Assembly: GCA_048940045.1 (NCBI GenBank) | Contig: JBHLOX010000001.1 | Coordinates: forward strand, 33,598 to 97,597 | DNA from: Promethearchaeota archaeon | Lineage (GTDB): Archaea > Asgardarchaeota > Thorarchaeia > Thorarchaeales > Thorarchaeaceae | Direction of reading: 5' to 3' | DNA length: 64,000 bases | In this document: positions 9,104 through 46,620 of the stretch, piece after piece | Position numbering within the stretch: the stretch's first letter is position 1 | Layout of the letters: the number at the start of each line of letters is the position of its first letter | Program-made: the position numbers and the translations under genes | The notes under the pieces: model-generated | What the model saw: only the letters and a program-made list of their open reading frames with translations | Database searches by the model: none | Told to the model about the DNA's origin: nothing

Positions 9104-9185
9104 CGTGGTTGTATACAGTCATAAAGTTAGTAAAAGAGGAATTTTCAAGTCTTACTCATAATTGAGTATAGAGGTGTGCCCTGTT

Positions 9186-10214
9186 ATGACAGAAAATGGC
9201 ATCTCAAAAGCCCTAGAACTATGTGGGTTTCTTACTGGTAGTGGGCAAGAGTCCCGTTTGATAAATCTACTCAGTGTTATTCTCAAGCTTCAGACGGACC
9301 CACCAATCCCTTTAACTTTTGGAGAAATCTATGATCAAGTGCAGAAAGATGAACCAGAGTCGAAGTTGACAAAAGCATGGGTACACAGGGTATTGAAAGC
9401 CCTAGTGGACATTCAGTTGATTCGCTTGGAGAGTCCTACAGCTCATCGAAAGAGGTACATTGCAGATGTGAATACCGTCATGGCTGGCCTTGAACAGTTG
9501 AAGAGTGAACGGATTAAAGAGCTTGAGGCACAAAAAGCGAAAATTGAGGAAACCCAAGATCTTGTGGCGAAACTAGAATGTGGAGAGCTTGCAAAGCAGT
9601 TTGTTAAGAGTGTGACTGGTGCTGAGCAGAAGATTAGTTCGCGTATAGTACGAGGAGTTGAAGAACTACACAGGGTTCTCAAATACAATATGTTAGACGT
9701 AGCAGGGAAAGGAGACACAATACGAGCAACCCTTCTCTGGGTTGGACCATTCCTGACTGGGGACACTATACAACGTATGATTAGTTTCACTAATGCAGCA
9801 AAGCGTGGTGCAGATGTCAGGTATATGACATCCACGGATATATTCAGTCTAGAAGAGATAGCTGATATTGATGTCGATGAAACTGCAGCGGCGGCATTAT
9901 TTCAACAACTTGTTGAATTAAAAAGGAGTAGGGTTAAATTTGATCTTCGTGTTTATGACGGTCCAAAAACATACTTTCAAGTGAGTCTTAACAAAGACAA
10001 TATGGCGCTGGTCATAGCTGAGAACCCAGTGACAGCCACATGGATTACCAGGGACTTCAATCCGGACTTAATTGACAATGCAGTGAAAGCGTTTGATAGG
10101 GAATGGAAGAAATCCAGATCATTTTTAGAATTATCACCCAAAGACTTGGAGGCTTTTGGTGTCCAACCCGATGCACTAATTAGTAGAATAAGACTTGTAA
10201 ATGGAGAAGAATAA
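9186..10214 (+). CDS. TrmB-like transcriptional regulator, paralog 1 (wHTH, coiled coil, C-terminal domain)
   Basis: The ORF is open from TTG 9162. ATG 9186 is preferred because agaggtg lies upstream. A wHTH-like segment (TKAWVHRVLKALVDIQLIRLE) and a coiled coil are present. The C-terminal block NMALVIAENPVTATWITRDFNPDLIDNAVKAFDREW is shared with the next two genes. Confidence 0.55.
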   Translation: MTENGISKALELCGFLTGSGQESRLINLLSVILKLQTDPPIPLTFGEIYDQVQKDEPESKLTKAWVHRVLKALVDIQLIRLESPTAHRKRYIADVNTVMAGLEQLKSERIKELEAQKAKIEETQDLVAKLECGELAKQFVKSVTGAEQKISSRIVRGVEELHRVLKYNMLDVAGKGDTIRATLLWVGPFLTGDTIQRMISFTNAAKRGADVRYMTSTDIFSLEEIADIDVDETAAAALFQQLVELKRSRVKFDLRVYDGPKTYFQVSLNKDNMALVIAENPVTATWITRDFNPDLIDNAVKAFDREWKKSRSFLELSPKDLEAFGVQPDALISRIRLVNGEE

Positions 10215-10231
10215 AGTGGCTACCCGGGGGA

Positions 10232-11149
10232 TTGAGGGTGACAACTGAAACAAGACATGAAGAACTGCTTGAATTGATTGGACTAGAGAAGACCAGAAAA
10301 GACATGGTCATACTTGGAGCCCTCTTCAAAGCCCAGAAAGAACCTTCTGATTTTATCGATTTCGAAACTCTGCGTGAACAACTAGCAAAAGACGAGGGTG
10401 CAAGAAAAGGAAAAGATTCCCTCATCTATAGGAGTCTGTCATGGCTCGAGAAGCAAGGATTTCTGAAGATTGACAAAGGGGGTCACAAGCATGGCTATAA
10501 CTCCAGTGTAGCAATTCTAGATAAGGCGGTAGAAAAGATAGTAAACAAGCAAGTCCAAACCCTAGAGAAAGAACTGAGGAAAATTGACTCCGAGATCAGT
10601 ATCTTCTCAGAAATGGATTCTGATGCCTTGGCATCTAGTCTAATCGATCTTGCTGCAGGGAAGGTAAAAATCGAGAAGTCGGTCTTTGCCCAAGGATGGG
10701 AGAGCATCCTGAAATTGCTTGAAAACAAGATATACAGTGGTCTCAAAGAGGGTGATGTGATAAGAATCAAGCTGGAGTGGTTATCTGACATTGACTACCT
10801 TGAGCCAAGAAGGATAATGAGATACGAAGAACTAGTTCAAAAGGGAGTGGAGATTCGAGCTCTCGATCATGACAGGGGTGAAAAGAAACTACGATCTAGA
10901 ATGAAGGAAGTTCTCACTACAATGCAAAACATGGGTGGCAAGGTTGGATATAAAATCCTGCGGCGGGAGGACGCAACATATCAATTCATGGGGCGCAACA
11001 ACGAAGGGATTGCGCTCATAGTTTCAGAGAGCCCACTCTCAGCAACATGGCTACCTAGAAGCAGTAACGAAGAGTTGGTTGAAAACGCGATAGACAGTTT
11101 TGACAGAGATTATGAGAAGGGGACAGACCTTCTGGATTATTTGGGGTGA
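10232..11149 (+). CDS. TrmB-like transcriptional regulator, paralog 2
   Basis: wHTH segment IYRSLSWLEKQGFLKID, a coiled coil, and the shared C-terminal block GIALIVSESPLSATWLPRSSNEELVENAIDSFDRDY. Confidence 0.55.
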   Translation: MRVTTETRHEELLELIGLEKTRKDMVILGALFKAQKEPSDFIDFETLREQLAKDEGARKGKDSLIYRSLSWLEKQGFLKIDKGGHKHGYNSSVAILDKAVEKIVNKQVQTLEKELRKIDSEISIFSEMDSDALASSLIDLAAGKVKIEKSVFAQGWESILKLLENKIYSGLKEGDVIRIKLEWLSDIDYLEPRRIMRYEELVQKGVEIRALDHDRGEKKLRSRMKEVLTTMQNMGGKVGYKILRREDATYQFMGRNNEGIALIVSESPLSATWLPRSSNEELVENAIDSFDRDYEKGTDLLDYLG

Positions 11150-12120
11150 AGGTTGTGGCTAGTAAGAAACTCCAGACAGCTTTGGAGAGGCTTGGGGTGG
11201 ATATGAGCTCAAGTGAGATGCAAGTCTTTCGAGCTGTTCTCATGGCTGCTGGGGGTACTGAGAGACCTGTGAATTATCGTAAAATCGCCACTAATCTTGA
11301 ATCAATAGCCAATAAAAAGTACACAAAGGCCTACATATACAGACGCCTTCACGATCTTGAGGAAGATGGATTCATCATAGCGGACAATATCCATTCTCCG
11401 AGGACCTATATGATTACTGAATCAAGTGTAGCAAAAGCACTAGACTCAAGACGAAAGCAGAAATTGTCTGAAACTCTAACAATGCGGCAAGATTTGACAA
11501 CAAATCTCAATCGTTTCAAGTCTGTCAAGAGCCATGAGCTTGCACTTATGCTACACAAACAGCTCGCTGGCGTTTCTGCATTCACGGATTCACTTCTCAT
11601 AGAAGGGGTAGAGAACGTCAGGAGTACGATAATCCGCGAGTTTGCAGATGGAGCGAAAGAGGGAGATGTTGTAAGAGTTCTTGGTCATGCTAGCACGTTG
11701 GCAGAAGGACTTGGACCGGGAGGTGTGACTGAGTTGAGGGTAATGCAGGCCGGTTTTAGAGGGGTTAAGGTTCTGGGGCTTCTCACTCCTGTTGGTGAGG
11801 ACACATTTGATGTTGAACTATTGGCAAAACACTTGGTTCCATTAGCAGAGGTGTTTGAGCAAGCAGCAGGGACAGGTAATATCCAGCTCAGGATATCGCA
11901 TGAACCCATTAAGACATATAGAATAGTCAGTCTCAACGAGGACAAGATGCTCCTTTATCTAACTCATGCTAAGGAGTCAGATGTTGCGGCTCTAGTCCAC
12001 AGAAAAGACAATCCTGGCCTCCTCAATGATGCACTTAGAACTTTTGACGAGATATGGGAAACCAGCATAGATGTTCTTGAAATTGTGAAAAAGAAAGCGC
12101 AGGAAGAGCATGCATTTTAA
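11146..12120 (+). CDS. TrmB-like transcriptional regulator, paralog 3
   Basis: N-terminus LERLGVDMSSSEMQVFRAVL...IYRRLHDLEEDGFIIAD is TrmB-type wHTH. The shared C-terminal block is KMLLYLTHAKESDVAALVHRKDNPGLLNDALRTFDEIW. The GTGA start/stop overlaps paralog 2. Confidence 0.6.
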   Translation: MKVVASKKLQTALERLGVDMSSSEMQVFRAVLMAAGGTERPVNYRKIATNLESIANKKYTKAYIYRRLHDLEEDGFIIADNIHSPRTYMITESSVAKALDSRRKQKLSETLTMRQDLTTNLNRFKSVKSHELALMLHKQLAGVSAFTDSLLIEGVENVRSTIIREFADGAKEGDVVRVLGHASTLAEGLGPGGVTELRVMQAGFRGVKVLGLLTPVGEDTFDVELLAKHLVPLAEVFEQAAGTGNIQLRISHEPIKTYRIVSLNEDKMLLYLTHAKESDVAALVHRKDNPGLLNDALRTFDEIWETSIDVLEIVKKKAQEEHAF

Positions 12121-13903: not shown

Positions 13904-15748
13904 ATGAGCGAATCCAAAGAAGACACCATCATGAGTGGCAATGAAGCTATAGCGAGAGGGGCTTTAGAGGCAGGCATTGGATTTTGTGCGTCCTATCCCG
14001 GAACCCCATCCACCGAGATTGCGACAACCCTCTTCAAAGCCACGCCTGAGCATGATATACATGTCGAGTGGTCCACCAATGAAAAGGTGGCCATGGAGGC
14101 TGCAGCTGCTGCAAGTTGGGCAGGGATTCCAGCCCTTTGTTCAATGAAGTCACTGGGTCTGAATGTTGCCTCTGATTTTCTACTAAACCTCAACCTCTCA
14201 GGCTCAGGAAAGGGGGGTTTCGTAATTGTCGTCTGTGATGACCCACGGGGTCATAGCTCTAGTAATGAACAAGATTCAAGGTTCTATGCGAAAGCAGCTA
14301 AAATTCCCCTGTTAGAACCATCAACCTATCAAGAGGCGATGGATGTCACAAAGACTGCATTCAAACTCTCTCGGAAGTTTGAGGTCCCAGTTCTTGTTCG
14401 AAGTACGACTAGGTTGTCACACTCAAGAGGATTAGTCCAGGTTGGCAAGGTTTTAACGAAGAAGAAAAAGGCGCAGAGTCTTCCAGAACACCTCTACAAT
14501 ATCCCATCACCTCACTTAAGGCATAGAGATCTCTTGGTGAAGATGGACAGGATAGAACAGGAGTTTGAGGAATCAACATTCAATGTTGAAGCAAACATCA
14601 AGGATATGGATCTATTAGTCATTTCAAGTGGTATTAGTTCTCTCTATACTCAAGAAGCCATCCAGACTCTTCAGGTAGATAAGATAGGTCATCTGAATCT
14701 AGTCACGACATACCCTCTACCTAGAAAGGCGGTTACCAATCTTCTACATAGGGTTGACAGAGTATTGTTCGTTGAGGAGAATGATCCTTTCCTTGAGGAT
14801 GAAACTAGATCACTTTCCGCGGATTTTGAGAGCCCCCCACATTTCTATGGTAAAAAGACAGGACACATTCCAAGCTTTGGTGAAATGAAAACAGATGTTG
14901 TCTTGAACGCCATTGCCAAACTGTTTGGAAAGGAGTCACCTTCAAGAGAAGATGCATCTTCGGACATGCTTGTAGATAGACCACTCACCTTCTGTGCAGG
15001 ATGTACGCACCGCAACTTCTACTGGGCCGTTCGCACTGTGAAGAAACGGCTGAGTGGGAAACTTGTTGTTGCTGGAGACATTGGGTGCTACTCGCTAGGT
15101 GTATTCTATGATGAGGCAATGGACACCATGCATGCCATGGGCTCTGGGATAGGAGTTGGGAGTGGACTGGGTCAACTGCAAAGATTCGGGTTTGATTCTA
15201 AGGTCGTATCGGTTGCAGGTGACTCGACCTTCTTCCATGCGTGCTTACCGGGACTCATCAATGCACGACATAAGAATGCAGACCTGACATTTGTGATACT
15301 TGACAATGCCACAACTGCAATGACTGGGTTCCAAGTTCACCCAGGTTCAAGGTTCCAAGAGAAATATCTGAGAAGAGTAAAGATTGATAGCTTGGTCAAA
15401 GCAGTGGAGCCAGATTTCTTCTCTATGGGAGATGCGACAAATATCAAGTCACTCACTGAGCTGCTTCACTCGACAGTGAAAAAAGATGGTCTGAAGGTCC
15501 TCTTGCTGAATAGTGTGTGTAGACTTGAGGAGGTCAAGCGAGAGCCGGGATTTGTTGGTGCCACACCAGTTCAGATAGACTGGGATCTGTGTAAAGGCGA
15601 GAAGTGCAAGATCTGTGCCCGTGACTTTGGGTGTCCAGCATTGAGCTGGGATGCAGAAGCCGGATATCCAGTCGTTTTGGATCACATATGTGTGCAATGT
15701 GGCGCTTGCATAGCAGTGTGTCCTCACGATGCCATTGTGGAGGGTTAA
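13904..15748 (+). CDS. iorA: Indolepyruvate:ferredoxin oxidoreductase, alpha subunit
   Basis: N-terminal MSGNEAIARGALEAGIGFCASYPGTPSTEI, a TPP-binding block (GDIGCYSLG...AGDSTFFHA) and a C-terminal 2x[4Fe-4S] region (CKICARDFGCPA...CVQCGACIAVCP). The size is 614 aa. Confidence 0.9.
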   Translation: MSESKEDTIMSGNEAIARGALEAGIGFCASYPGTPSTEIATTLFKATPEHDIHVEWSTNEKVAMEAAAAASWAGIPALCSMKSLGLNVASDFLLNLNLSGSGKGGFVIVVCDDPRGHSSSNEQDSRFYAKAAKIPLLEPSTYQEAMDVTKTAFKLSRKFEVPVLVRSTTRLSHSRGLVQVGKVLTKKKKAQSLPEHLYNIPSPHLRHRDLLVKMDRIEQEFEESTFNVEANIKDMDLLVISSGISSLYTQEAIQTLQVDKIGHLNLVTTYPLPRKAVTNLLHRVDRVLFVEENDPFLEDETRSLSADFESPPHFYGKKTGHIPSFGEMKTDVVLNAIAKLFGKESPSREDASSDMLVDRPLTFCAGCTHRNFYWAVRTVKKRLSGKLVVAGDIGCYSLGVFYDEAMDTMHAMGSGIGVGSGLGQLQRFGFDSKVVSVAGDSTFFHACLPGLINARHKNADLTFVILDNATTAMTGFQVHPGSRFQEKYLRRVKIDSLVKAVEPDFFSMGDATNIKSLTELLHSTVKKDGLKVLLLNSVCRLEEVKREPGFVGATPVQIDWDLCKGEKCKICARDFGCPALSWDAEAGYPVVLDHICVQCGACIAVCPHDAIVEG

Positions 15749-16351: not shown

Positions 16352-18655
16352 CTAGACCTTCTTGCCTTCTTGCATCTTGCGAGCCTCTCGCCACATGACC
16401 TCAGCAAGCACAGTGAACATATCCGCTACACCCTCACCGGTCTTTGCTGATGATTCCATGTAGAGGAAGCCATTGTCCTCTGCCCAGCGCTTTGCCTCAT
16501 CAGATGGGACTGCGCGGTCTGGTAAGTCTGTCTTGTTTCCAACACAGACCATGGGCACTCGGGCTCCAATGGACTCATCTGCTTCCTGCACCCACTTCGA
16601 CAACTCAGTGAATGAGCGACGCCGCGTGACATCGTACACCAGGATTATCCCTGCTGCTCCCGAATAGTACATCTTCCGGACAGCCTTGAACCGGGCTTGG
16701 CCTGCAACGTCCCACGCCTGCAGTTTGATTCCAGTGGCATACTCCTTCTCGGGAGGTGAAATGTGAGTCAGTTTGACAGCGAACTGACTCCCAATAGTAG
16801 TCTTATAGTCCCGCTCGAACACTCCAGTGACATAACGGTTCACAAGGGTTGTCTTTCCGACTGCACCCTCTCCGATGACCATTGTCTTAAACAGGAACTG
16901 ATAGGAATCAGGTGCGGTTCCAGGTTGCGGAGCCTTTGGTCGTCGGGTCCGAATTTCAGCGACAAGTTGACTCTCAGTGTCAGACACAACAGCAGTCGTT
17001 ACTGTTTCAGCTGGGGTCGGTTCTGCTGCGAGTGCCTCAATGTCGTCAATCTCAGACAGTGCAGCACCAGTTTCTTCCGCACCAAAGAGTTTGTCAAGAA
17101 GCTCTTCTGCAGCTCTTAGTGACTCAGAGCCATCATCAGCCATAGTGGTCTGTAGAATCTCAGCTGCCTTTTCCTTGGCCTCAGTCCCTTTAAAACCGGT
17201 ACCCACAACAGGACCGAATGGAGATTCTTCGACAACTTCAGGGGGCTCATAGGTTTCAGTAGGTTCTACAGTGACTGGAGCAATTGCGGCTGGAGCAGCC
17301 ACTGCTGCACCCTTCTCAACAAGAATAGCTGTTTCTGGTGTTGTGACCTGTAGGACCTTACCAGTGACATCAGTCCACATCAGGACAATAGGGCGTACAA
17401 TCACTGTACCCTCTTCCCTTGGTGTCATCTTGATTTCAGCAAACTTGCTCTCTCCTGGAGCAAGATCAAAACGAAGTTGCTGTGGATCGACATCCATGTG
17501 ATCCTTCGGGAACCAGTAGATCTTACCTGCAATACCATTGATTGGTTGGTTACTCACATTGTACACAGTGACCTTTCCTTTGAGCTCTGCACCAGTCTTT
17601 GTTTCAGGGCTCACCTCAAAGGTTGGAATAATCTTGTAGAGGCCTTCGATGACCTTCAACGGGCCATCAGAAACGCCAACCTGAACCTCTTTTCGCCCAT
17701 CTCCACCAGCATCACCAACATTGATCGAGAGTATCTTCTTTCCAATGTCAACTGATGCCAACTGGTTGAGGTCGGCCATATGAAGGCTGTAGAAGTTGAT
17801 TTTGAAATCAGAAGTAGCCACAACAATTTCATCTTGGTGGTCCGCGTTGAGCTCTTCTATCCGAACTGAGAGTGCGTTCACGTTCTCGAGTTTGGAGAAC
17901 AAGTCCAGTTTGCTCTCTTCATTTCTATAGATACGAACAGAACCATCGTGTGTGACTACTCCAAGCTCCATCTTCCTGTCACCCAACACGTCGCCAGCCG
18001 CTAGAGATATGACAGGACTTGGTAGTTGGATGACTTCAATCTGGTCGACTGACTGGTCGCGTACTTTGAATATCCTAAGTGTCCGGTCTCTATTCCCAGT
18101 GACTATCTCCTCAATCTCATCGCCAATCACATCACAAGTTCCAATGGCGATGGGCATGTCGTCGAGCTGATGGTTCACAAATTGTTTGAGGTTATTCGCT
18201 GAGTCCATCTGGAAGATTCTCAATGTCGAATCACTGCCACCAACAAGAATCTCGTTCTTCTCGTCGCCAGTCACGTCGGTGACATAGACGGTTGTGACAA
18301 AACGGTCAACAGGGTATTCGGCCAACACCTCGAGTCGCCCGCTAGGAGCATAGCGGTAGACCTGGATAGTTCCAGCTTCACCAGGGTTCTCACTACCTCC
18401 GATTGCACGACCAATGACTAGTTCCATCTGTCCATCGTTGTTGGCATCGGCAATCTTGATGGAGAGTATACTTCCTCCAACATCATGTTGTGCTAGAAAC
18501 ACAATTTCACTCTTGTTTGCATCATAAAGACGGAGAACACCATCACGGCCACCGGTACATAGTTCTGCGGTACCATTTCCAGTGACATCTCCAACTGCAA
18601 TTGCGCTCGTGCTTTCTTCATCCTCTATTTCGAACAGAACTTTTGGTGATCCCAA
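16352..18655 (-). CDS. Multidomain protein: 7-bladed FG-GAP/VCBS-like beta-propeller, beta-sandwich, acidic low-complexity linker, C-terminal Rab/Ras-like small GTPase
   Basis: Seven repeats of the type GDVTGNGTAELCTGGRDGVLRLY span aa 1-340 (nt 17636-18655). A beta-rich module spans aa 343-447 (nt 17315-17629), and an A/E/T/P-rich linker follows. The GTPase occupies aa 585-767 (nt 16355-16903) with G1 GEGAVGKT, G2 TIGSQF, G3 WDVAGQARF, G4 GNKTD and G5 SSAK. Confidence 0.85.
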   Translation of the reverse strand: MGSPKVLFEIEDEESTSAIAVGDVTGNGTAELCTGGRDGVLRLYDANKSEIVFLAQHDVGGSILSIKIADANNDGQMELVIGRAIGGSENPGEAGTIQVYRYAPSGRLEVLAEYPVDRFVTTVYVTDVTGDEKNEILVGGSDSTLRIFQMDSANNLKQFVNHQLDDMPIAIGTCDVIGDEIEEIVTGNRDRTLRIFKVRDQSVDQIEVIQLPSPVISLAAGDVLGDRKMELGVVTHDGSVRIYRNEESKLDLFSKLENVNALSVRIEELNADHQDEIVVATSDFKINFYSLHMADLNQLASVDIGKKILSINVGDAGGDGRKEVQVGVSDGPLKVIEGLYKIIPTFEVSPETKTGAELKGKVTVYNVSNQPINGIAGKIYWFPKDHMDVDPQQLRFDLAPGESKFAEIKMTPREEGTVIVRPIVLMWTDVTGKVLQVTTPETAILVEKGAAVAAPAAIAPVTVEPTETYEPPEVVEESPFGPVVGTGFKGTEAKEKAAEILQTTMADDGSESLRAAEELLDKLFGAEETGAALSEIDDIEALAAEPTPAETVTTAVVSDTESQLVAEIRTRRPKAPQPGTAPDSYQFLFKTMVIGEGAVGKTTLVNRYVTGVFERDYKTTIGSQFAVKLTHISPPEKEYATGIKLQAWDVAGQARFKAVRKMYYSGAAGIILVYDVTRRRSFTELSKWVQEADESIGARVPMVCVGNKTDLPDRAVPSDEAKRWAEDNGFLYMESSAKTGEGVADMFTVLAEVMWREARKMQEGKKV

Positions 18656-21592: not shown

Positions 21593-21967
21593 ATGTCACT
21601 ACGAAACCGCATTCCAGATCAGCTTAGGATTACTGATGATGTGGTTTCAATCACGATTGAGGAGGACATAGCGGTATACCCAACGAGTGACTATATACTT
21701 CTTGAGATTTCTCACAAAGCTGGAAAAGTCAATATTTCGAAGGTGGCGAATACTATCAGAGGACTTGTCAAGGATGACAAAAGAATGGTGGCGATTCGTG
21801 GATTTGGATTCAAGGGAATTGGTCTTGCTGTCAGAGTGGCTCACGACTTGAAAATACGTGAAAGCAAGTTCATTTACGAGATGACCTTTGATACATTTGA
21901 TGCAATAGACCCAAAATCTGAGCGACCTGTTACAAGTGTTCAGATCATAGTTATGCCACCACAATAG
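21593..21967 (+). CDS. Hypothetical protein, possibly a divergent Alba-fold nucleic-acid-binding protein
   Basis: [42 protein letters not shown]...[11 protein letters not shown] parallels the Alba pattern [36 protein letters not shown]...SRVSTIEIAI. Weak, by eye. Confidence 0.3.
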   Translation: [124 protein letters not shown]

Positions 21968-36816: not shown

Positions 36817-39162
36817 CTAGCGATGATAGGTCAACACCACATCATTCGCTAATGGAACAAGTTTGAGGTGAGGTGAGCGATTTTTCACCGCCCGTTCCAC
36901 AACACTGCCACCATATGCCTTAACCATTCGCAGAGGAACGGTTTCAGGAACATGGATCTCAATCTCCTCTGGAAGGATTTCCATCCCGGTTTCAATTTGA
37001 TGTTGATTCGCGGATAAGCCTATTTCAATATGGATCTTACCAAACTTAGTGTGAAGACCTTTAATGATGAGAGCCTTTTTAGATGTGAACCATTCACTCG
37101 GGATTCCAGCCAGGAAGATCAAGTTATTCTGGTCCTCTTGAACCAGCATATCACTCAAGAGAAGGATGATATCTGCAGCAGCCAGCGCACTTGATCCAAC
37201 TCCACCGCTACCCCCAAAAGTTCTAGGATTTACGAAGTCTGGAAGCAGATAGTCTTGCGACAAAAACTCAAGTGCTCTTCGAAGAATTGGCTCAGCTCCA
37301 TCTCGCTGCTTGTCCCAGACATGAAACTGCGCTATTCTCAGGGCAAGATGACTGGATAAAGACTCAGAGGATTCCTTTGTCTTCCAAAGATAACGCAGAA
37401 GCCGTCTGCCAGAGATCTTCCTGCACAAATCACGTAAGTAGCTGATATCCAAGTCATGAATCTTAAATTGAACAACGCTAGTCAAGATATCGAGAATTGC
37501 TCTATCAATCTCCAGCATTCGTGGATCATTGGATCTTGGCCACCGGGCACTCCTAATCTCGTCAAGTCTCTCCCGTATACGAGCCTCAACAAGGGGAATC
37601 GTGTTCTTTATTTTGTCGACCAGGCTGACCTTAGTTAGAGCAAAGTAACTCTGACTCTCCCTGAGAGCTGAAAGATCCCAGAGTAATTCATTAAACTCTT
37701 GGAGTAGACTCTCATCCAAAACTCGATAGTGTTCCAATGGAACATCGTCAGTTTCATCAGGTCTTTCTGATGAGGAATCAACCACTTTCCTCCGAGGCCT
37801 TCCTACTTCCAAAGCAGTGACTAGACCTTCAGCTAATTGCGCGAGATACTCGATGTTCTCTTGGATAGACTCCTTCTCGATAGAATACCCTTGTAGCTGA
37901 AGAAGACCCCAGAGAAGTGGACTAAATATGGTTGTGTCTAAGGAAGTATCTGACTCCTTGAAGATTCGCGCAGCTTGATTTGTGATTTGACTGGCAACAT
38001 CAACAACGCCAGACTTGATCAGTGCATAGAGAACCCTCATTCGATCTCTCCACCTGAAAGGCGAGTTGTCCCCTTCTTCAGGGAATAATACAGTTTGTGA
38101 TTGAATGGCAAGAGAAACAGCGGCCTGTGATAGAACCTCGTTCAGTTCCTCATCAGGAAAGATTGCCACTCCCCTCTGCCGTGTAAAATCATACCACTTT
38201 CCAATTGCTTGATCTCGATTACGACTCTCAGGTTTCCACTCAGCCAAGGACTCCATGTAAGAAGATGGTTCAAGGGGCGAGGCAAAGACTATTGTCTTGG
38301 TTCCTGCAGGAGGCAGTGAAATATTGAATCTGAGAATTGCGGTACAAAGACCCTCTTTAGAGGCCTTTTTGTAGTCATACCGAATTTGGTCAGATTGTAT
38401 AATATCAGGAATGGTTGTATCATTTGCTTCAACCAAGTAAACTGCAGAAGGTGCCATGTCAACTTGAAGCGCAATGGATTCATTCGCGAGTATTTGGTTT
38501 GTCACAGGGTCAAACTCTAGGTTCTCAAGAGGTTCAAACCCTAACACAGACATGGGTCTAAGCACCGCATAGAAGGTGACTCTCGTCTTCTCAAGGGCTA
38601 TGTTCTTCAGAATCACCTCATTTGAGAGATATTCTAGTCCATCCTGTTCAGCATGGTAGAGTAATCTTGTGAACTCAACTGATTTGACATCAGTTTTCCA
38701 TTCATAGAGCTGATCTTCCGAAGAAACTAGTTTTAACTGTGGTTCATCTTTTCCCATAAGGGCTGGAAAGATGACACCCTCAGTTCCTAGAACCCAGATA
38801 TCTACAGACCCACAGTCTGGAGAGGCAGTCACCAGTCCACGAGAGTCTGTTATCCCGAATTTCTTTGACCCTACACCTCCGATCAATGACCAGTTTCGAT
38901 AGGAATTGTTTGGCAGTTCGGTGATCAGGGTTTCTTCCTTTCCAAGTCCTTTCAGGGTAAGGTCTACCCATGAGGGGAGCATCCATGGTTCAGCCTCAAG
39001 ATAGACAGATGCATTGAGTTGCTCTCTAAGATACTCGATTTCACTTTCTACAAGCGTGTCAGGTTCAGGGAGTGCTATATCATGTTTCATAGATACTCTC
39101 CTGAACCGTTTCAAACGAGCAAAATCATCCTTGGCCAAGTCAAAGAACCTCTTCAGGAACAC
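36817..39162 (-). CDS. Large hypothetical protein, possibly an (alpha/alpha)6-barrel glycoside-hydrolase-like fold in the C-terminal half
   Basis: 781-aa ORF. RWRDRMRVLYALIKSG and GGVGSSALAAADIILLL faintly resemble GH15/debranching-enzyme blocks. Weak. Confidence 0.5.
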   Translation of the reverse strand: MFLKRFFDLAKDDFARLKRFRRVSMKHDIALPEPDTLVESEIEYLREQLNASVYLEAEPWMLPSWVDLTLKGLGKEETLITELPNNSYRNWSLIGGVGSKKFGITDSRGLVTASPDCGSVDIWVLGTEGVIFPALMGKDEPQLKLVSSEDQLYEWKTDVKSVEFTRLLYHAEQDGLEYLSNEVILKNIALEKTRVTFYAVLRPMSVLGFEPLENLEFDPVTNQILANESIALQVDMAPSAVYLVEANDTTIPDIIQSDQIRYDYKKASKEGLCTAILRFNISLPPAGTKTIVFASPLEPSSYMESLAEWKPESRNRDQAIGKWYDFTRQRGVAIFPDEELNEVLSQAAVSLAIQSQTVLFPEEGDNSPFRWRDRMRVLYALIKSGVVDVASQITNQAARIFKESDTSLDTTIFSPLLWGLLQLQGYSIEKESIQENIEYLAQLAEGLVTALEVGRPRRKVVDSSSERPDETDDVPLEHYRVLDESLLQEFNELLWDLSALRESQSYFALTKVSLVDKIKNTIPLVEARIRERLDEIRSARWPRSNDPRMLEIDRAILDILTSVVQFKIHDLDISYLRDLCRKISGRRLLRYLWKTKESSESLSSHLALRIAQFHVWDKQRDGAEPILRRALEFLSQDYLLPDFVNPRTFGGSGGVGSSALAAADIILLLSDMLVQEDQNNLIFLAGIPSEWFTSKKALIIKGLHTKFGKIHIEIGLSANQHQIETGMEILPEEIEIHVPETVPLRMVKAYGGSVVERAVKNRSPHLKLVPLANDVVLTYHR

Positions 39163-40550: not shown

Positions 40551-42242
40551 GTGATTCTAAAGATGCTTCAAGACATAGACCGATTGGATTCGCATGATGA
40601 AGAGAAACCAGTCTTTGTTGAAGAAGGGTACTTCTCTGGTGCTCGGATGGGCGAAGCCATTGATTGGTGTATCACACGGCAAGATCGTGAGCTACATTGT
40701 GAGGTCGAAGGAAAGCTGACTTCAACGGGTAAAGAGGTGAAGTTCAGAGGGCGAATCCTGAAGGTCAAGAAAGGAGTCCTGACACGTCGGATTGCTGTAT
40801 ATGTAGAGGAGGACCTTCGGAGACAACGAGCAGGAGAACTTGACAAGGTTCTCACTGTTGGAGGTGAGGGAACAAGTCAGGAGGATGTAGCGGCCGCTCA
40901 AGTCACTGTACAGAACTACTTGAAGAGAAACATGGCTGATGACCTGTACTATGATGGTAGAGACCTCCAACAGGCTGTGAAGGATCTAGAGAAGATGAAG
41001 AGTCAGGAAATAGAGTGTACGGTTTGGGGTCGTAGAGGTTCTGATAAGACCATGATCATGATTAAGGGAACAGTTGTTGGCGCAGCAACAAGACCGGCCC
41101 CAATTCTGCCAGAGGGGACTCTTGAGGTGAGAGTCGCTCCTGAGGAGGAGGTGGGAGACCCAAAGATCTATCTGATTGCACAACCTCAACTTCTAATTGG
41201 GCCCAGTTACAACCCAAACCTCACTGTCGTTGCTGACAAGGTCTACATTATTCCATTTGCTTGGAAACAGGCTCCTGAATACAGAGATGTCCTTGCAGCC
41301 AGAAACCTTACTGTGACCATTAAAAGTGGAAAGAGACTCATCGAGAATGTATCATTCTCTATGCGGGAAGGAGAGATGTTAGCTATCATCGGTGAGTCTG
41401 GTGCTGGTAAGTCAACCACGGTGAAAGCACTGATTGGTGACATCCCAAGTACAGGTGTTGCCAGAATAGCTGGGATTGACTCTCGACAAACACAGAAGGT
41501 TCGGCACTTTTTCGGATACTGTCCGCAAGACCTGTCATATATGTATGAAACCTTCACCCCTCTCGAGAACATCATTGCCTTTGGAAAACAATACGATATT
41601 CCTGAGTGGCAGCTCATTCAGAGAGGAAAGACACTCTTGAGGGACTTTGGCATATTGGAGAAAGGAAATAATCCCACAAAGAAGCTTAGTGGTGGTGAAC
41701 AGAGGCGGGTTTCTGTTGGTATCGCACTCGCCCACAAGCCCAAAGTACTCCTAATGGATGAACCGACTTCAGGTTTAGATCCTGACAACAGGAATGAGCT
41801 TTGGAGCTATCTCACCTACATCAATCAAGAGTATGGAACATCAATTGTTGTCATTACACATTATCCAGTCGAGTCAGAGTTCTGTGACAAGGTGGCAGTC
41901 TTCATGCGTGGCAAGAGTTTAGTCGCATTTGGAAGTCCAGCGACATTGAAGGAGTCAATGCCCTCCAGAGGATTTGCTGTTGGTATTGTTCTGGAAGAGG
42001 TGGACCCAAGAGCACGTAAAACATTAGAGAAGGTCAAGGGAGTTCGCTTTGTATTGCAGAGAGGAGAGCTCCTCAAGATTTTCACTGATGAACCTCTAGA
42101 AGTGATTGCAGAGAGATGCGTTTCTGCTTTGAAGGAACAGGACATCCCAGTCAAGATTGTGAAGACAAAGTCGGTAGCTGACATGGTAGATTACTATGTA
42201 GCTATTACTCGAGGTCTTATTCAAGGCACTATTGAGAAGTGA
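40551..42242 (+). CDS. ABC transporter ATP-binding protein with an unknown ~260-aa N-terminal extension
   Basis: The C-terminal NBD has Walker A GESGAGKST, signature LSGGEQRR and Walker B VLLMDEPTSGLD. The N-terminal 260 aa show no recognisable motif. An alternative ATG lies at 40563. Confidence 0.85.
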   Translation: MILKMLQDIDRLDSHDEEKPVFVEEGYFSGARMGEAIDWCITRQDRELHCEVEGKLTSTGKEVKFRGRILKVKKGVLTRRIAVYVEEDLRRQRAGELDKVLTVGGEGTSQEDVAAAQVTVQNYLKRNMADDLYYDGRDLQQAVKDLEKMKSQEIECTVWGRRGSDKTMIMIKGTVVGAATRPAPILPEGTLEVRVAPEEEVGDPKIYLIAQPQLLIGPSYNPNLTVVADKVYIIPFAWKQAPEYRDVLAARNLTVTIKSGKRLIENVSFSMREGEMLAIIGESGAGKSTTVKALIGDIPSTGVARIAGIDSRQTQKVRHFFGYCPQDLSYMYETFTPLENIIAFGKQYDIPEWQLIQRGKTLLRDFGILEKGNNPTKKLSGGEQRRVSVGIALAHKPKVLLMDEPTSGLDPDNRNELWSYLTYINQEYGTSIVVITHYPVESEFCDKVAVFMRGKSLVAFGSPATLKESMPSRGFAVGIVLEEVDPRARKTLEKVKGVRFVLQRGELLKIFTDEPLEVIAERCVSALKEQDIPVKIVKTKSVADMVDYYVAITRGLIQGTIEK

Positions 42243-45200
42243 GAAAATGGCAGGCCTGAAACGATCTATAGAACATCTGACACAAAGAGTAGCTGCATAC
42301 CTGCTGGTATGCATCCTCATGGTCAGTGGACTATCGGTGTTTCCACCTGTTGTCGGGATCAGTCCTTACGTAGCAGAACCTATGAACAAGATTGATGAAT
42401 CATTGCTCAATCAGACCTCAATGGATCAGTATCTGGATGTTCTTGTAGGGTACGATGAAGAAGTGGGTGATTTTAAGGCAAAGAACGCTGTTATATTCGC
42501 AGATCGAACAGCAGAGATGATAGATGTCTTTGAATCAATAGGAATGCTCCATGTGAAGATGCTGGGGTCTGCTATTGTGGACTTGGCTAGAGAGGAGTTC
42601 ATCACTAAGATATGGTCAAACGAAATCACTCCAATTGAACAAACACAGACCACAGCTTCTACAATATCATCAACTGAGGACTATGTGCCACTTATTGACA
42701 GAATTGGTGCAAGAGACCTTTGGGATGCTGGGTACAATGGCACTGGTACAGTCATTGCAGTCCTTGACACTGGAGTGGACCCACTTCAGTCTGATTTCAG
42801 TGTGGCTGCTTTTGCTTCCTTTGTTGAGGCAGATACACTGCCTCTTGACCTCATCGGACATGGTACATACGCAGCATCCGTTGCAGTGAGTTCTGGGAAT
42901 ACCTCAGGAGGTGTATATGCAGGTATCGCCCCTGGCGCAACACTGCTATCTGCCAAGGTGACCCTTGGAGGTCTCTTTGCTGCTCCAAGTTGGATTGTAT
43001 CAGGTATTGAATGGGCAAGTAGCAGGGGTGCAGATATCATTCTTCTACCATTCAACACCCTTGGGTCGCCAGATGATGCAGTTTCCAAAGCTGTTGAAAT
43101 CGCAGCGAACAAGGGAATTTTTGTTGTGGCTGCATCAGGTGATGACGGCCCAGACTACCTGACTGTTATGTCTCCTGGTGGAAATGCTGCAGCCTTCTGT
43201 GTTGGTGCATATAACACAGAGTTGCAGGAGATACCAGATTTCTCAGGGAGAGGACCATCACTCTCACTGCTAACAAAACCAGATTTAGTGGCTCCTGGTG
43301 TGGGAGTTGTAGGTGCTAAACCATTTTCAGGTCTTGCAGGTCTTGGATTTGGCGACATTGGTCTTGGAGACCTAGGCGACCTTGGTGGACTTGGAGGTCT
43401 CCTAGGAGGCTCTATTGGCGAAACATACGATGAGAATTACACTATTGCAGACACTACAGCTGCCTCTGCAGCCATCACTGCAGGTGCCGCAGCAATTCTA
43501 CTCCAGGCGTTCGATAGGGTCCATCCAATCACTCTTGCAAATGTTCTCCGAGATACTGCATCCCCTATTGGCTATGGTGCCAATGATGGAGGGGCGGGTC
43601 TTCTCAATCTTCAGGTGGCATTTGACTATTTGAGTACACAACAGACACCAGGGGATCCACATGTTCGAACAACAAGTTTGCCTTTACTTGCACTAGGCCT
43701 TATCACTGCAACTGGGACTGACGCTTCAACTTCGATGCTGATGAGTAGTTTTGGAACTACCCTTGTAGCACTGGATCAACGTAATCCCCAAGACTCAGGT
43801 ACTCACCTAATGATGGGAATGTTCTCGCTGAAATGGAACAACGAAGATCCTACAAACCTGATGATGTTCGATGTGAAAAGTGAGTTTCATCAAGTTGTGA
43901 GTGCATCAAATACAATACCTTACAACCGGTATGTTGGGGTATTGTCCTACAATGATTCGATCTATGTCACCTTCCTTGTAGAGTCGTATAATCTCACAGA
44001 ATACTCATCACTTCCTCTTACAGCATTTAGAGTAACACCATTCATTCTCAATCTTGATGATGAGCCAATTGCCAATGTTAGTCTCTATGTTTCTTACTCA
44101 CTTGATCTTTATCTCGATGGTGAGGATGACCATGGAAAATATGACCTTGATAACCAGCAACTCTTTGCTTACGGTCTCTCAGAGAGTTACGGAAACTTCT
44201 ACGTGGGCATGAACTCAAGCATCCCACTTTCAGGATTTGAGGTTGGTAACTCATCAAACATCGCAAGTCATGTTTCAGACAATAATCTGACTGGATCCAC
44301 CGTATTCGACGGAGATGTCGGTTTGGCAATGCAATGGGACTTTGGGACTTTGGATATTGACGAGCTCGTCAATGTGACAATTGCCATGGGATTTGGAGAG
44401 AACCGCACAATCCTGGATGCGTCAATCGACGCTATGTGGGAGAATGACATTCCATCTGGGGCCTTAGATCAGGGGGACCTCATTGTTGTCGAGGTGGATG
44501 TTCCAAGGATAGCAGAAGCAGGTCATACATATCAATCAAAAGCTGTCATCATGAACATTGGACAGGAGAACTCAACTGCTATTGGAGCAATGCTTGTTGT
44601 AGAGGGCACTGTTGAAGACGGAACTATGTTTGCGAGATACTTCAACTATGATGTTCTTGAACCCTTCAAGGCCAAGGTATTGGTGACTGACTGGCGACCT
44701 GAAACAGAGGGAGTAAGAACAGCAGCTTGGGCTGTTTCTACAGGTCTAGATCAAATAGTTGGTCTAATATCTGACCCAACAGGTGCTATACTGACCTCAG
44801 GAGTGGGGCTATTGGATGATTTCATCATGCGTGATGTCTTCATCATCGACCCCATATCGTCAAGCTCTGTGTTCCCAAAGCAACTACCCTTCGCACCATT
44901 TGACATCAGATTTCCAGCAGACTTTGGACTCTATAGCTTTGTTTTGTCAACCACAGAGTCACTAGGAAATATGACCATCTCAAACCATGGAAACGCATCA
45001 GACTGGGGTAACATGTCCCTTACTAGTGCAGAAACAATAGAGGGATTCTATGACTTCTCAGGTTTCTTTATGGCACCGCCTATTGGTATGGATGGGTATC
45101 ATAGATGTGACTATGTAATCGAAACAGACTATGGATGGACCACAAATATCACGTTAGAAAGGGTAATAGAGTATCCGCGCGCAATGATGCTCCTTGATAC

Positions 45201-46620
45201 ATCGCATGGGGGTGGATTTGGATCTCTCCTAGGAGATATGGGAGGATTTGGTGATACAGGGAACCTGACGGGTGAAACAGGAGGAATAGGTTTCCCGCTT
45301 GCTCAGGAGGATGGAAGTTCCAGTGAAACGGATATGCTCACAGGCTTTAGTCTGAACGATTTGGGTAGCCTCGATTCGCTGACCAGTCTCTTTGACTCAT
45401 TCAGAATGACAACATTCTCCGGACTTTCAAATATGAAAAAGAGAATGGCTGAAGTTGGACTCGATCTCATAGAAACACCAGGAATGGAACTGGATTCGGG
45501 TTTACTCGCAACATTCTCGACTGTCTTCATTATCGCTCCAACTGAAGAATTCAACCAGACTGACATCGATATTCTCAGGGAATTCTCGCAGGACGGTGGA
45601 ACAATAGTCGTTCTTGGTGACAATGATGACAATGCGAATACTACCGTACTCAATCCGTTATTGATGGAGTATGGTTACTATCTTCAAGGAAGTCATAGCG
45701 AGGATAACACTACTGACATCATGACGATAACCCCACTGGGACGAGGTCTAGAGAGTATCTGGCTTGGCGGTGGAGCCTATGTCATGAACAATCAATCCAA
45801 CGCAAATGCCAGACTCAATGGAAACAGTGTAATCATGCTAGACACGACTGATCCTGAAATCGCGATTTTTGGTTCTTCGAAGATTTTCATGAATAAGAAC
45901 CTGGTGAAGTGCAACAACAGCAGATTACTCGATAATCTGAATGAGTTCCTACTGCGAAATACCCTGACCGCCTCTACAAGTCTCTCAGAGAACACAACAT
46001 TGTACCAAGCTGGTCGAAGTGTCTATGTCAATCTTGAGTTAGCAGATTATTATGGGAATCCTGTCAATGACCTATTGGTTGCAATTGCCTATGAACTTCC
46101 GAACGGAAGTCTAGCATTCTTCATTGCAGGTTTCGTTGAGGATGGTCTTTATTCCTCGCAGTTTACACCTAGCTACTGGAAGAAGGCTGGTAGAATAAAC
46201 GGTATTTTTCTCATCTTAGGCGATGAGAACTACGCGATGACATATGCCAGTGTCAGCTTCTATCTGTATGAGGTTGAACCAACTAGTCCACCACCCCCAC
46301 CGTTTATGTTCCTGACTATGGCAGAACTGGCGGTCATCACATCACTAGGGATATTTGGGGGACTCATCGGATACCTCGTCTGGAACCGCCGAAGAATGAG
46401 GAAGCGTCTAAGAATTCCAGAGATCGAGCCGGAACTAGTTCAAGACATAGACAATACCCTCAGTGCACTCCTTGCAGCATTCACACTACTGGAGAATCTC
46501 ATCAGAAGAGAGGATCTTGATAGAATACAGAAGATCGAAACATTACGTGTGCTTATGCAGGACATTGAAGAAGCTCGTAGGATGTTCGAAAGAGTGAGCG
46601 ACAAGGTAGGAGGTGTGTGA
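42232..46620 (+). CDS. Giant (1462 aa) N- and C-terminally membrane-anchored surface protein with a subtilase (S8)-like domain lacking canonical Ser/Asn, and a GldG/ABC_transp_aux-like segment
   Basis: The S8-like blocks are VIAVLDTGVD (Asp, 42766-42768), GHGTYAAS (His, 42859-42861), VVAASGDDG (Asp where the oxyanion Asn is expected, 43141-43143) and YTIADTTAASAAITAGAAAILL (Thr where the Ser of GTSMAAP is expected, 43456-43458). Other features:
- a Gly/Leu/Asp-rich insert at about 43325-43420;
- many N-x-S/T sequons;
- the segment VFIIAPTEEFNQTDIDILREFSQDGGTIVVLGD at about 45510-45635;
- a C-terminal TM helix plus an ~85-aa helical tail.
An alternative ATG lies at 42247. Confidence 0.8.
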   Translation: MRSEKMAGLKRSIEHLTQRVAAYLLVCILMVSGLSVFPPVVGISPYVAEPMNKIDESLLNQTSMDQYLDVLVGYDEEVGDFKAKNAVIFADRTAEMIDVFESIGMLHVKMLGSAIVDLAREEFITKIWSNEITPIEQTQTTASTISSTEDYVPLIDRIGARDLWDAGYNGTGTVIAVLDTGVDPLQSDFSVAAFASFVEADTLPLDLIGHGTYAASVAVSSGNTSGGVYAGIAPGATLLSAKVTLGGLFAAPSWIVSGIEWASSRGADIILLPFNTLGSPDDAVSKAVEIAANKGIFVVAASGDDGPDYLTVMSPGGNAAAFCVGAYNTELQEIPDFSGRGPSLSLLTKPDLVAPGVGVVGAKPFSGLAGLGFGDIGLGDLGDLGGLGGLLGGSIGETYDENYTIADTTAASAAITAGAAAILLQAFDRVHPITLANVLRDTASPIGYGANDGGAGLLNLQVAFDYLSTQQTPGDPHVRTTSLPLLALGLITATGTDASTSMLMSSFGTTLVALDQRNPQDSGTHLMMGMFSLKWNNEDPTNLMMFDVKSEFHQVVSASNTIPYNRYVGVLSYNDSIYVTFLVESYNLTEYSSLPLTAFRVTPFILNLDDEPIANVSLYVSYSLDLYLDGEDDHGKYDLDNQQLFAYGLSESYGNFYVGMNSSIPLSGFEVGNSSNIASHVSDNNLTGSTVFDGDVGLAMQWDFGTLDIDELVNVTIAMGFGENRTILDASIDAMWENDIPSGALDQGDLIVVEVDVPRIAEAGHTYQSKAVIMNIGQENSTAIGAMLVVEGTVEDGTMFARYFNYDVLEPFKAKVLVTDWRPETEGVRTAAWAVSTGLDQIVGLISDPTGAILTSGVGLLDDFIMRDVFIIDPISSSSVFPKQLPFAPFDIRFPADFGLYSFVLSTTESLGNMTISNHGNASDWGNMSLTSAETIEGFYDFSGFFMAPPIGMDGYHRCDYVIETDYGWTTNITLERVIEYPRAMMLLDTSHGGGFGSLLGDMGGFGDTGNLTGETGGIGFPLAQEDGSSSETDMLTGFSLNDLGSLDSLTSLFDSFRMTTFSGLSNMKKRMAEVGLDLIETPGMELDSGLLATFSTVFIIAPTEEFNQTDIDILREFSQDGGTIVVLGDNDDNANTTVLNPLLMEYGYYLQGSHSEDNTTDIMTITPLGRGLESIWLGGGAYVMNNQSNANARLNGNSVIMLDTTDPEIAIFGSSKIFMNKNLVKCNNSRLLDNLNEFLLRNTLTASTSLSENTTLYQAGRSVYVNLELADYYGNPVNDLLVAIAYELPNGSLAFFIAGFVEDGLYSSQFTPSYWKKAGRINGIFLILGDENYAMTYASVSFYLYEVEPTSPPPPPFMFLTMAELAVITSLGIFGGLIGYLVWNRRRMRKRLRIPEIEPELVQDIDNTLSALLAAFTLLENLIRREDLDRIQKIETLRVLMQDIEEARRMFERVSDKVGGV

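Follow-up and report, generated by a model that had tools for sequence, protein, structure and literature searches.

In a 64,000-nucleotide stretch of Promethearchaeota archaeon DNA (GenBank assembly GCA_048940045.1, contig JBHLOX010000001.1, positions 33,598 to 97,597; hereafter the window, at its full length), we identified a genuine single gene for a multidomain Rab-like GTPase, predicted to be cytosolic, that is specific to and conserved across Thorarchaeota. Its 767-residue product carries a seven-bladed FG-GAP ('calcium-blade') beta-propeller, an immunoglobulin (Ig)-like beta-sandwich, a long acidic linker and a C-terminal GTPase domain (Table 1), and we put at about 0.5 the probability that propeller and sandwich form a platform that the attached Rab domain gates through its nucleotide state, either in cis or in trans. 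An earlier note on this DNA, made from the sequence alone, had proposed this architecture, and every element that it listed is found in the one open reading frame (ORF). Pfam matches to Ras (E=1.4e-46, 158.5 bits) and FG-GAP_3 (E=4.6e-17) make chance an untenable source of the domain assignments. The ORF begins with a TTG start codon, with an in-frame stop 81 nt upstream and no other start codon between the two, and its homologs share the same start residue (MGSPK).

That the gene is an artefact, two adjacent genes joined by read-through or, as the earlier note had cautioned, by mis-assembly or frameshift, is a practically negligible possibility. A word-indexed search of 5.8 billion proteins with the fusion protein gave 165 significant matches, of which at least 120 were listed, all with the same Pfam architecture, 757-826 residues long if complete and 66-92% identical to the query; these protein clusters come from NCBI, JGI, ENA and Logan assemblies and are named just 'GTP-binding protein' or 'hypothetical protein'. 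Nearly all named homologs among the matches listed are attributed to Thorarchaeota, and an identical protein is encoded in GCA_048940325.1, in keeping with the Asgard host proposed before. When one genome per GTDB species was scanned, about 63 loci were found at 64% identity or more, and the closed chromosomes CP070658.1 and CP070761.1 both carry the gene. The propeller signature, G1 and G3 lie in one uninterrupted frame in 54 independent assemblies, these two chromosomes included (54 of 61 loci), with six of the other seven loci cut by contig ends and one showing a G1 variant. The sole locus labelled Hermodarchaeota has the full Thorarchaeota-type synteny, and even the most divergent family member (P0123, assembly GCA_053994715.1, 42% identity) keeps the four-part architecture at a partly syntenic locus.

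Selection points the same way. Against 11 relatives, the ratio of nonsynonymous to synonymous substitution rates (dN/dS, pooled Nei-Gojobori) is lowest in the GTPase (0.02) and the propeller (0.03) and somewhat higher in the sandwich (0.08) and the linker (0.11). Although dS approaches saturation, the nonsynonymous proportion pN is far below the synonymous proportion pS in all four segments, the linker included. All four segments are under purifying selection, with mean identities to the query of 75% (propeller), 66% (sandwich), 47% (linker) and 88% (GTPase). An exhaustive HMMER search with residues 1-460 against 1.84 billion representatives recovered only three full-length representative clusters of the family; the matches then dropped steeply, to FG-GAP proteins of generic kind from archaea and bacteria with E-values of 1e-27 or weaker. 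Within the Thorarchaeota lineage the fusion gene thus has a narrow distribution, is strongly conserved and is apparently present in single copy.

As judged from its sequence, the C-terminal domain is complete as a Rab-type GTPase, with no catalytic or switch element of a working enzyme missing. All four G motifs read in the earlier note (G1, G3, G4 and G5; Table 1) were verified by translation, the switch-I Thr is present (T619/T620), and G1-G5 are invariant across the family. In a PDB search the best match was the Thorarchaeota Rab 7ezb (E=2e-43), and the next 59 matches were all eukaryotic Rab chains (Rab14, Rab11, Rab25, Rab4, Sec4, Ypt1/31/32 and Rab1/2/10). In blastp comparisons, for which the MglA and Ran references are identical to PDB entries (6HJH for MglA) and the other non-Rab references are approximate, the domain scored 159 bits with Thor-Rab and 150 with Rab14 (42% identity with these best matches), followed by Rab5A (124), Rab7A (105), Ran (91), HRas (73), Rac1 (61), MglA (45) and Arf1 (40). 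The proposed Rab/Ras-like affiliation is thus supported at 150-159 bits by pairwise and ranking comparisons, and a grouping with the bacterial MglA/Rup families is not what these comparisons give. All five RabF positions are recognisable (IGSQF, KLQAW, RFKAVR, YYSGA and LVYDVT), with RabF1 and RabF3 diverged; the consensus from Pereira-Leal and Seabra's work of 2000 reportedly reads IGVDF, KLQIW, RFRSIT, YYRGA and LVYDIT. The hydrophobic Phe/Trp/Tyr effector triad of Rabs is invariant in the family. The protein ends in REARKMQEGKKV, a short basic tail (...EGKKV) that stops about 10 residues past helix alpha5, with no Cys and no hypervariable tail; Cys residues occur only at positions 33, 174 and 704, which confirms that a C-terminal prenylation Cys is lacking.

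All seven FG-GAP-like repeats quoted in the earlier note were located in the N-terminal part (residues 22-36, 69-82, 126-140, 174-187, 221-234, 267-280 and 314-327); they recur about every 47 residues, and D-x-x-G-D-x-x-x-E loops are kept in all seven blades. In a full-length AlphaFold2 model, built from an alignment of 38 homologs that are all at least 66% identical, residues 1-336 form 28 strands, or seven blades of four strands each, at a predicted local distance difference test (pLDDT) score of about 88. Pfam matches to the propeller include FG-GAP (24 bits, cut-off 22.1), Beta-prop_BBS7 (61.5 bits), BBS2_Mid (52.9 bits) and Itfg2 (35.1 bits; cut-off 27 for each of these three), with PHTB1_N just under its cut-off (27.9 against 28.6 bits). 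Only the blade-2 loop matches the Dx[DN]xDGxx[DE] calcium-blade motif exactly, and its residues D70, A71, N73, D74, G75 and E78 are invariant in the family alignments, including the 42%-identical ortholog; the six other loops are degenerate relative to the Dx[DN]xDG Ca2+ motif. The motif definition is that of Rigden et al. (PMC3123361), who found a calcium-blade motif of this kind in intracellular BBS2 and kaptin.

Among solved structures, the closest to the fusion protein are propeller subunits of the BBSome and of KICSTOR. With the full model as Foldseek query against the PDB, ranks 1-8 are taken by BBS2, BBS9, BBS7 and BBS1 (E from 2e-20 to 2e-15, 480-530 aligned columns) at a sequence identity of only 12-14%, followed by the KICSTOR subunit ITFG2 (E=4e-15), which matches the whole propeller with a template modelling score (TM-score) of 0.69-0.70 over the target and a root-mean-square deviation of about 4 A. 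When PDB sequences were searched with a profile built on the first 450 residues, ITFG2 came first (E=2.5e-8, 36 bits, mainly over blades 1-2) and BBS7 (1e-3) and BBS2 (6e-3) were also listed; integrins are absent from both the PDB profile matches and the Foldseek matches of the propeller. The propeller can defensibly be placed in the calcium-blade superfamily as a cytosolic member, with the propellers of the BBSome and KICSTOR as its nearest relatives of solved structure; this likeness is at superfamily level and does not establish orthology.

The beta-rich module reported after the propeller is borne out as a domain of 10-11 strands (residues 342-455) with a pLDDT of about 83 in the full model and 84.3 when modelled alone. 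It has no Pfam match, and its model resembles a generic Ig/CARDB/MSP-like fold: Foldseek searches of the PDB with the sandwich alone gave TRAP beta/delta luminal domains (1e-5), MSP/VAP (2e-4) and CARDB (9e-4), with the GAE domain of BBS9 only at rank 42 (2e-3). With those folds ranking higher, identification of the sandwich as a GAE domain is not established. The order of propeller and Ig-like sandwich nevertheless parallels BBS1 and BBS9, and the alignment to full-length BBS9 is longer (511 columns) than that to 4yd8, a BBS9 structure of the propeller alone (361 columns), an indication that the sandwich is included in the former.

Between sandwich and GTPase lies the acidic Ala/Glu/Thr/Pro linker of about 135 residues that had been described before; over residues 450-585 it contains 24 Ala, 20 Glu, 15 Thr and 13 Pro in 136 positions, has a net charge of -18 and is predicted to be disordered, with short helices in the AlphaFold2 model at residues 494-502, 510-519 and 563-570. 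Because three near-invariant islands stand in this otherwise variable segment (47% mean identity) together with the predicted short helices, the linker is more than a passive spacer. The island consensus sequences are S-P-F-x-P-x-x-G-T-G-F (residues 478-488), S-L-[KR]-x-A-E-x-L-L-D-[QK]-L-F-G (512-525) and E-S-x-L-V-x-E-I-R-x-R-x-P-K-P-P-R-P-G (561-579), the third running into the Rab-type Y-x-[YF]-L-F-K N-terminus of the G domain. We considered the linker motifs SPFGPVV and LFGAEE as gamma-ear- or FFAT-type ligands of the sandwich, but do not claim this, the case consisting of visual likeness and a weak MSP match.

We predict that the protein is cytosolic because it has no transmembrane segment (maximum 19-residue hydropathy 1.52), an acidic N-terminus, an excess of acidic over basic residues (121 against 79) and a fused GTPase. 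Both N-terminal folds are protein-interaction folds, and the propeller-sandwich unit would be an integral effector or scaffold platform, with the GTP/GDP state of the Rab domain at the other end of the tether controlling whether it is available or assembles. In a cis version, the Rab switch surface or a linker helix would dock on and off the propeller; in a trans version, the GTP-bound Rab domain of one molecule would bind the propeller of the next, giving nucleotide-controlled assemblies. The BBSome is recruited by ARL6-GTP via the propeller of BBS1, and the Rag-GTPase regulator GATOR1 has KICSTOR as its scaffold; the fusion would hard-wire into one polypeptide a coupling that eukaryotes make with separate proteins such as ARL6-GTP and the BBS1 propeller. 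The role in membrane or scaffold recruitment suggested earlier is at most a possible one, and the protein has neither lipid anchor nor transmembrane segment.

Several observations weigh against the gated platform or against its likeness to eukaryotic scaffolds. The full-length AlphaFold2 model has a predicted TM-score of 0.55 and gives no confident inter-domain arrangement, for which reason we word the gating model as a hypothesis. Residues 572-665, the first half of the G domain, have a pLDDT below 50 despite an unambiguous Rab sequence, which is likely due to the shallow alignment of 38 sequences; this region includes a family-specific beta2-beta3 hairpin insertion (SPPEKEY, residues 633-639). 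Inspection of the protein sequence revealed no membrane or lipid anchor, and the conserved gene neighbourhood is purely metabolic (genes for an ABC transporter and for indolepyruvate/2-oxoacid ferredoxin oxidoreductase) and offers no hint of function, with no TBC, DENN, TRAPP, TPR, solenoid or coat-type gene within ±8 kb at the loci examined. The Pfam BBS matches are several short, repeated blade-level stretches and not collinear domain alignments, and the Itfg2 match spans 44 residues only. By sequence, the propeller is closest to other propellers from archaea, some labelled Promethearchaeota and Helarchaeales, which score about 100-113 bits as against 36 for ITFG2. Eight of nine other archaeal or environmental propellers scanned pass the BBS7 Pfam threshold, most of them also BBS2_Mid and Itfg2, and a secreted 2273-residue protein of the window (47617-54438, + strand; signal peptide, C-terminal transmembrane anchor and about 24 calcium-blade-like loops), used as a specificity control, passes BBS2_Mid with 37 bits. 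Since these proteins match too, we have downgraded the Pfam BBS matches as proof of BBSome homology.

These Pfam results favour an account in which the likeness to BBSome and KICSTOR is only superfamily-level and a prokaryotic FG-GAP propeller was recruited within the lineage, with no special eukaryotic link. The same account is favoured by the HMMER search, which passes from three family clusters to generic FG-GAP proteins, by the generic Ig fold of the sandwich, and by the generic WD40 propellers that follow ITFG2 in the Foldseek ranking at 4e-13 or weaker, within about two orders of magnitude of its E-value and with equal or higher TM-scores. It must contend with the lead of BBS2/9/7/1 and ITFG2 among solved structures, by fold and by profile, over integrins and bacterial calcium-blade propellers in the PDB, with alignments to full-length BBS subunits that exceed the propeller-only ones (about 350-360 columns) and reach past the propeller, and with the cytosolic, GTPase-coupled nature of the fusion, as in the BBS and ITFG2 systems. 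On balance we lean slightly towards this account, which concerns ancestry and is compatible with a nucleotide-gated platform. The suggestion that the protein is loosely coat- or BBSome-like holds as far as the top structural and profile matches go, and is not supported by the generic sandwich, the missing alpha-solenoid (after the sandwich the protein has only the disordered linker and the GTPase) and the lack of a coat partner gene nearby. To our knowledge, the BBSome (BBS1/2/7/9) and KICSTOR (ITFG2/KPTN) propeller scaffolds have so far been regarded as eukaryote-specific. It seems doubtful that the fusion preserves an ancestral module of BBSome/KICSTOR type, in which a cytosolic calcium-blade propeller and an Ig/GAE-like sandwich are joined to their cognate Rab-like GTPase, with the BBS1/2/7/9 and ITFG2/KPTN propellers descending from Asgard cytosolic ones already coupled to GTPases and the protein acting as a nucleotide-gated, self-assembling scaffold or proto-coat.

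Two further explanations concern function. Prokaryotes commonly have multidomain GTPases in which repeat domains act as sensors, and the protein might be a ligand- or Ca2+-sensing signalling GTPase of Roco/STAND-like kind, in which propeller and sandwich would detect a ligand, metal or protein and the Rab-like domain would be the output switch, with no part in organising membranes or scaffolds. The family-wide invariance of the exact blade-2 motif, the loops kept in all seven blades and the lack of trafficking genes nearby would fit such a sensor, but only one of the seven loops is canonical, Ca2+ binding is a prediction from the motif, the protein has no COR domain or other Roco/STAND hallmark, and its G domain is of specifically Rab-like type, retaining both the effector triad and the RabF motifs; we consider the sensor unlikely. 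Beta-propeller guanine-nucleotide exchange factors (GEFs) also exist, namely RCC1 for Ran and Sec12 for Sar1, so that the propeller could be a cis-acting regulator of the fused GTPase, similar to a GEF or a GTPase-activating protein (GAP), in a self-regulating switch. The tether would permit the cis contact and the neighbouring genes include no separate GEF or GAP, but neither RCC1 nor Sec12 is among the top 50 Foldseek matches, the Sec12-like propellers of Asgard archaea were found to be apparently non-functional as Sec12 (Asgard Arf study, PMC11914678), and a switch would tend to lose its point if a GEF or GAP were permanently attached to it. Such self-regulation strikes us as improbable, and we retain the propeller-sandwich platform gated by the Rab domain as our working model.

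With BBS1, BBS2, BBS7 and BBS9 (e.g. PDB 6VBU, 6VOA), the fusion protein shares a seven-bladed cytosolic propeller of calcium-blade type followed by a beta-sandwich, and with the BBSome and ARL6 it shares a propeller coupled to a small GTPase, a functional coupling that is established on the BBSome side. It lacks the coiled-coil, platform and helical C-terminal domains of the BBS subunits, its sandwich is not demonstrably a GAE domain, and its GTPase is Rab-like and covalently fused whereas that of the BBSome is Arl-like. No BBS4/8-type TPR, BBS5 or BBS18 genes occur within ±8 kb of the fusion gene. ITFG2, which with KPTN belongs to KICSTOR (e.g. PDB 9V6E, 9O5A), is likewise a cytosolic propeller, and its scaffold serves a small-GTPase (Rag) pathway; unlike the fusion protein it consists of a propeller by itself, with neither sandwich nor linker nor GTPase, and we saw no sign of KPTN, SZT2 or C12orf66 counterparts to the fusion protein.

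The G domain shares G1-G5, the RabF positions, the Y-x-[YF]-L-F-K N-terminus and the hydrophobic triad with Thor-Rab (PDB 7EZB; Tran et al. 2024, PMC10933270) and with Rab14, Rab11, Rab4 and Sec4, and, like the crystallised Thor-Rab, which is without the geranylgeranylation cysteines of eukaryotic Rabs (PMC10933270), it has no prenylatable Cys. Thor-Rab and the eukaryotic Rabs are single-domain proteins, whereas the fusion adds an N-terminal extension of 584 residues; it further differs from Rabs by 4-6 inserted residues in the beta2-beta3 hairpin (SPPEKEY), by the lack of a hypervariable C-terminal tail and by an Ala in place of the switch II Glu (WDVAGQARF against WDTAGQERF). Asgard roadblock- and longin-fused GTPases (PMC10933270; Liu et al. 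2020, 10.1101/2020.10.19.343400) also join a GTPase covalently to a domain that is a separate partner in eukaryotes, but those are Rag/Arf-like GTPases with small regulatory platforms, and here a Rab-like domain is joined to a large propeller-Ig unit through a long disordered tether. Roco proteins (Roc-COR, with leucine-rich repeats or WD40) resemble the fusion in being multidomain proteins with a Ras-superfamily G domain and a beta-propeller, and the Pfam Roc model matches the fusion; the differences are the N-terminal, FG-GAP rather than WD40 propeller, the Rab-like G domain and the missing COR domain, which neither Pfam nor the AlphaFold2 model places after the G domain. Integrin-alpha and prokaryotic FG-GAP/VCBS propellers (PMC3123361) belong to the same repeat family and have the exact Dx[DN]xDG loop found once here, but are almost always extracellular, whereas the fusion protein, with its one canonical Ca2+ loop, is predicted to be cytosolic and is fused to a GTPase.

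The Lokiarchaeon MKD1 GTPase architectures given in the Thor-Rab structure paper (PMC10933270) are single-domain, roadblock or longin fusions, or 'unknown', and neither the text of that paper nor that of the asCOG preprint (10.1101/2020.10.19.343400) mentions a propeller fusion; the same holds for the Asgard Arf study (PMC11914678) and for recent reviews. In the searchable full-text literature, a scope that leaves aside supplementary tables and subscription-only papers, we found no mention of a propeller-Rab fusion or of BBS/ITFG2-like Asgard propellers, and the protein appears by its sequence to be an Asgard Rab-like GTPase in a multidomain architecture without earlier description in that literature. 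Propeller scaffolds working with small GTPases (coats, BBSome, KICSTOR/GATOR and HOPS) are central to eukaryotic membrane organisation, and the origin of GTPase-effector pairings is an open question in eukaryogenesis. As a natural 'Rosetta-stone' fusion, the gene predicts a functional partnership of GTPase and propeller in archaea, and its product is a tractable object, a single soluble protein for studying nucleotide-dependent conformation, self-assembly, Ca2+ binding and partner capture. Even if the likeness is superfamily-level only, the catalogue of Asgard GTPase architectures grows beyond roadblock and longin fusions, and calcium-blade propellers, usually extracellular in prokaryotes, would have been recruited to cytosolic GTPase signalling.

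Table 1. Features of the propeller-Rab fusion gene, in window coordinates
Feature	Residues	Position	Strand	Basis or remark
Complete fusion gene	767 aa	16352..18655	(-)	propeller / beta-sandwich / linker / Rab-like GTPase; stop codon 16352-16354
Seven-bladed FG-GAP ('calcium-blade') beta-propeller	1-336	17648..18655	(-)	Pfam, AlphaFold2, Foldseek, profile search
Blade-2 loop DANNDGQME	70-78	18422..18448	(-)	sole exact Dx[DN]xDGxx[DE] calcium-blade motif
Ig-like beta-sandwich	342-455	17291..17632	(-)	AlphaFold2 model, Foldseek
Acidic Ala/Glu/Thr/Pro linker	456-584	16904..17290	(-)	composition, AlphaFold2 disorder
Linker island 1, SPFGPVVGTGF	478-488	17192..17224	(-)	T486, G487, F488 in 52-53/55 sequences
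Linker island 2, SLRAAEELLDKLFG	512-525	17081..17122	(-)	predicted amphipathic helix; A516, E517, L519, L520, F524 near-invariant
Linker island 3, ESQLVAEIRTRRPKAPQPGTAPDS	561-584	16904..16975	(-)	short helix, then basic proline-rich segment
Rab-like small GTPase domain	585-767	16355..16903	(-)	Pfam Ras 1.4e-46, PDB and blastp ranking, RabF motifs
G1 / P-loop GEGAVGKT	595-602	16850..16873	(-)	translation; invariant in family alignment
G3 / switch II WDVAGQARF, catalytic Gln653	648-656	16688..16714	(-)	translation; invariant in family alignment
G4 NKTD	707-710	16526..16537	(-)	translation
G5 SAK	736-738	16442..16450	(-)	translation

The fusion gene is monocistronic. A 174-bp gap separates it from a divergently oriented ABC-transporter ATPase gene, and a gap of 8 bp from the convergent gene of a ferredoxin-oxidoreductase (POR gamma-domain) subunit. 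This arrangement is conserved, ABC genes being present at 55-60 of 63 loci and oxidoreductase genes at 49-51 of 63. The earlier note had pointed to neighbouring GAP/GEF genes of roadblock or longin type as something to look for, and none was found within ±8 kb in the window or at four loci of relatives (L001-L003 and L081). Three consecutive ORFs of 350, 305 and 324 residues (window 9162-12120, + strand) are syntenic with the fusion gene at 19-34 of 63 Thorarchaeota loci, and also at L001 and L002; they have no significant Pfam match and show weak winged-helix-like hints only, and as candidates for GAP/GEF-type genes they were set aside with no Pfam or PDB match of that kind. A 124-residue ORF (21593-21967, + strand), located between an ABC substrate-binding-protein gene and a 197-residue membrane-protein ORF and kept at L001-L003, was considered as a roadblock/longin protein and likewise has no Pfam or PDB match to support this. 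In chromosome CP070761.1 (locus L001, which is also L056), a stand-alone small GTPase of 177 residues (14110-14643 of the locus) lies about 4 kb from the fusion gene and scores 104.7 bits with the fused G domain; it is absent at the window and L002 loci. Near the divergent ortholog P0123 we observed a 319-residue Arf-family protein (L081, 11794-12753). Elsewhere in the window, a 781-residue ORF (36817-39162, - strand) has no Pfam match at E<=1 and no transmembrane segment. The gene of the 2273-residue secreted protein belongs to a same-strand cluster (with 40551-47620 upstream) that includes two ABC ATPase genes and a transmembrane-anchored subtilase of 1462 residues, the C-terminal part of which matches the IFT52 'GIFT' domain (33.9 bits); the region looks like a surface-protein and transporter cluster.

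We also looked for an unfused propeller/GTPase pair elsewhere, and only one distant propeller locus has a Ras-family GTPase nearby, which we do not regard as significant. In this locus (L075, 5872-13139; Promethearchaeota metagenome-assembled genome DZ2M.350), two tandem ORFs of about 890-900 residues carry FG-GAP_3 repeats along most of their length, and a 189-residue Ras-family GTPase is encoded on the same strand about 1 kb downstream, with an opposite-strand DUF998 gene between. Because small GTPases are abundant in Asgard genomes, the pairing could easily be due to chance. Two other proteins, apparently cytosolic, have the same type of propeller as the fusion protein. One (P0175, 1021 residues, from a Logan assembly) combines it with a beta-rich segment, PCI/DDRGK winged-helix matches and a C-terminal zinc ribbon, Pfam giving no support to a roadblock-like C-terminus that we had considered; in the other (P0129, 796 residues, Promethearchaeota GAB4320573.1), the propeller is followed by repeated winged-helix (DUF5817/PaaX-like) units. 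These fusions suggest that cytosolic proteins with calcium-blade propellers form a broader class in Asgard archaea.

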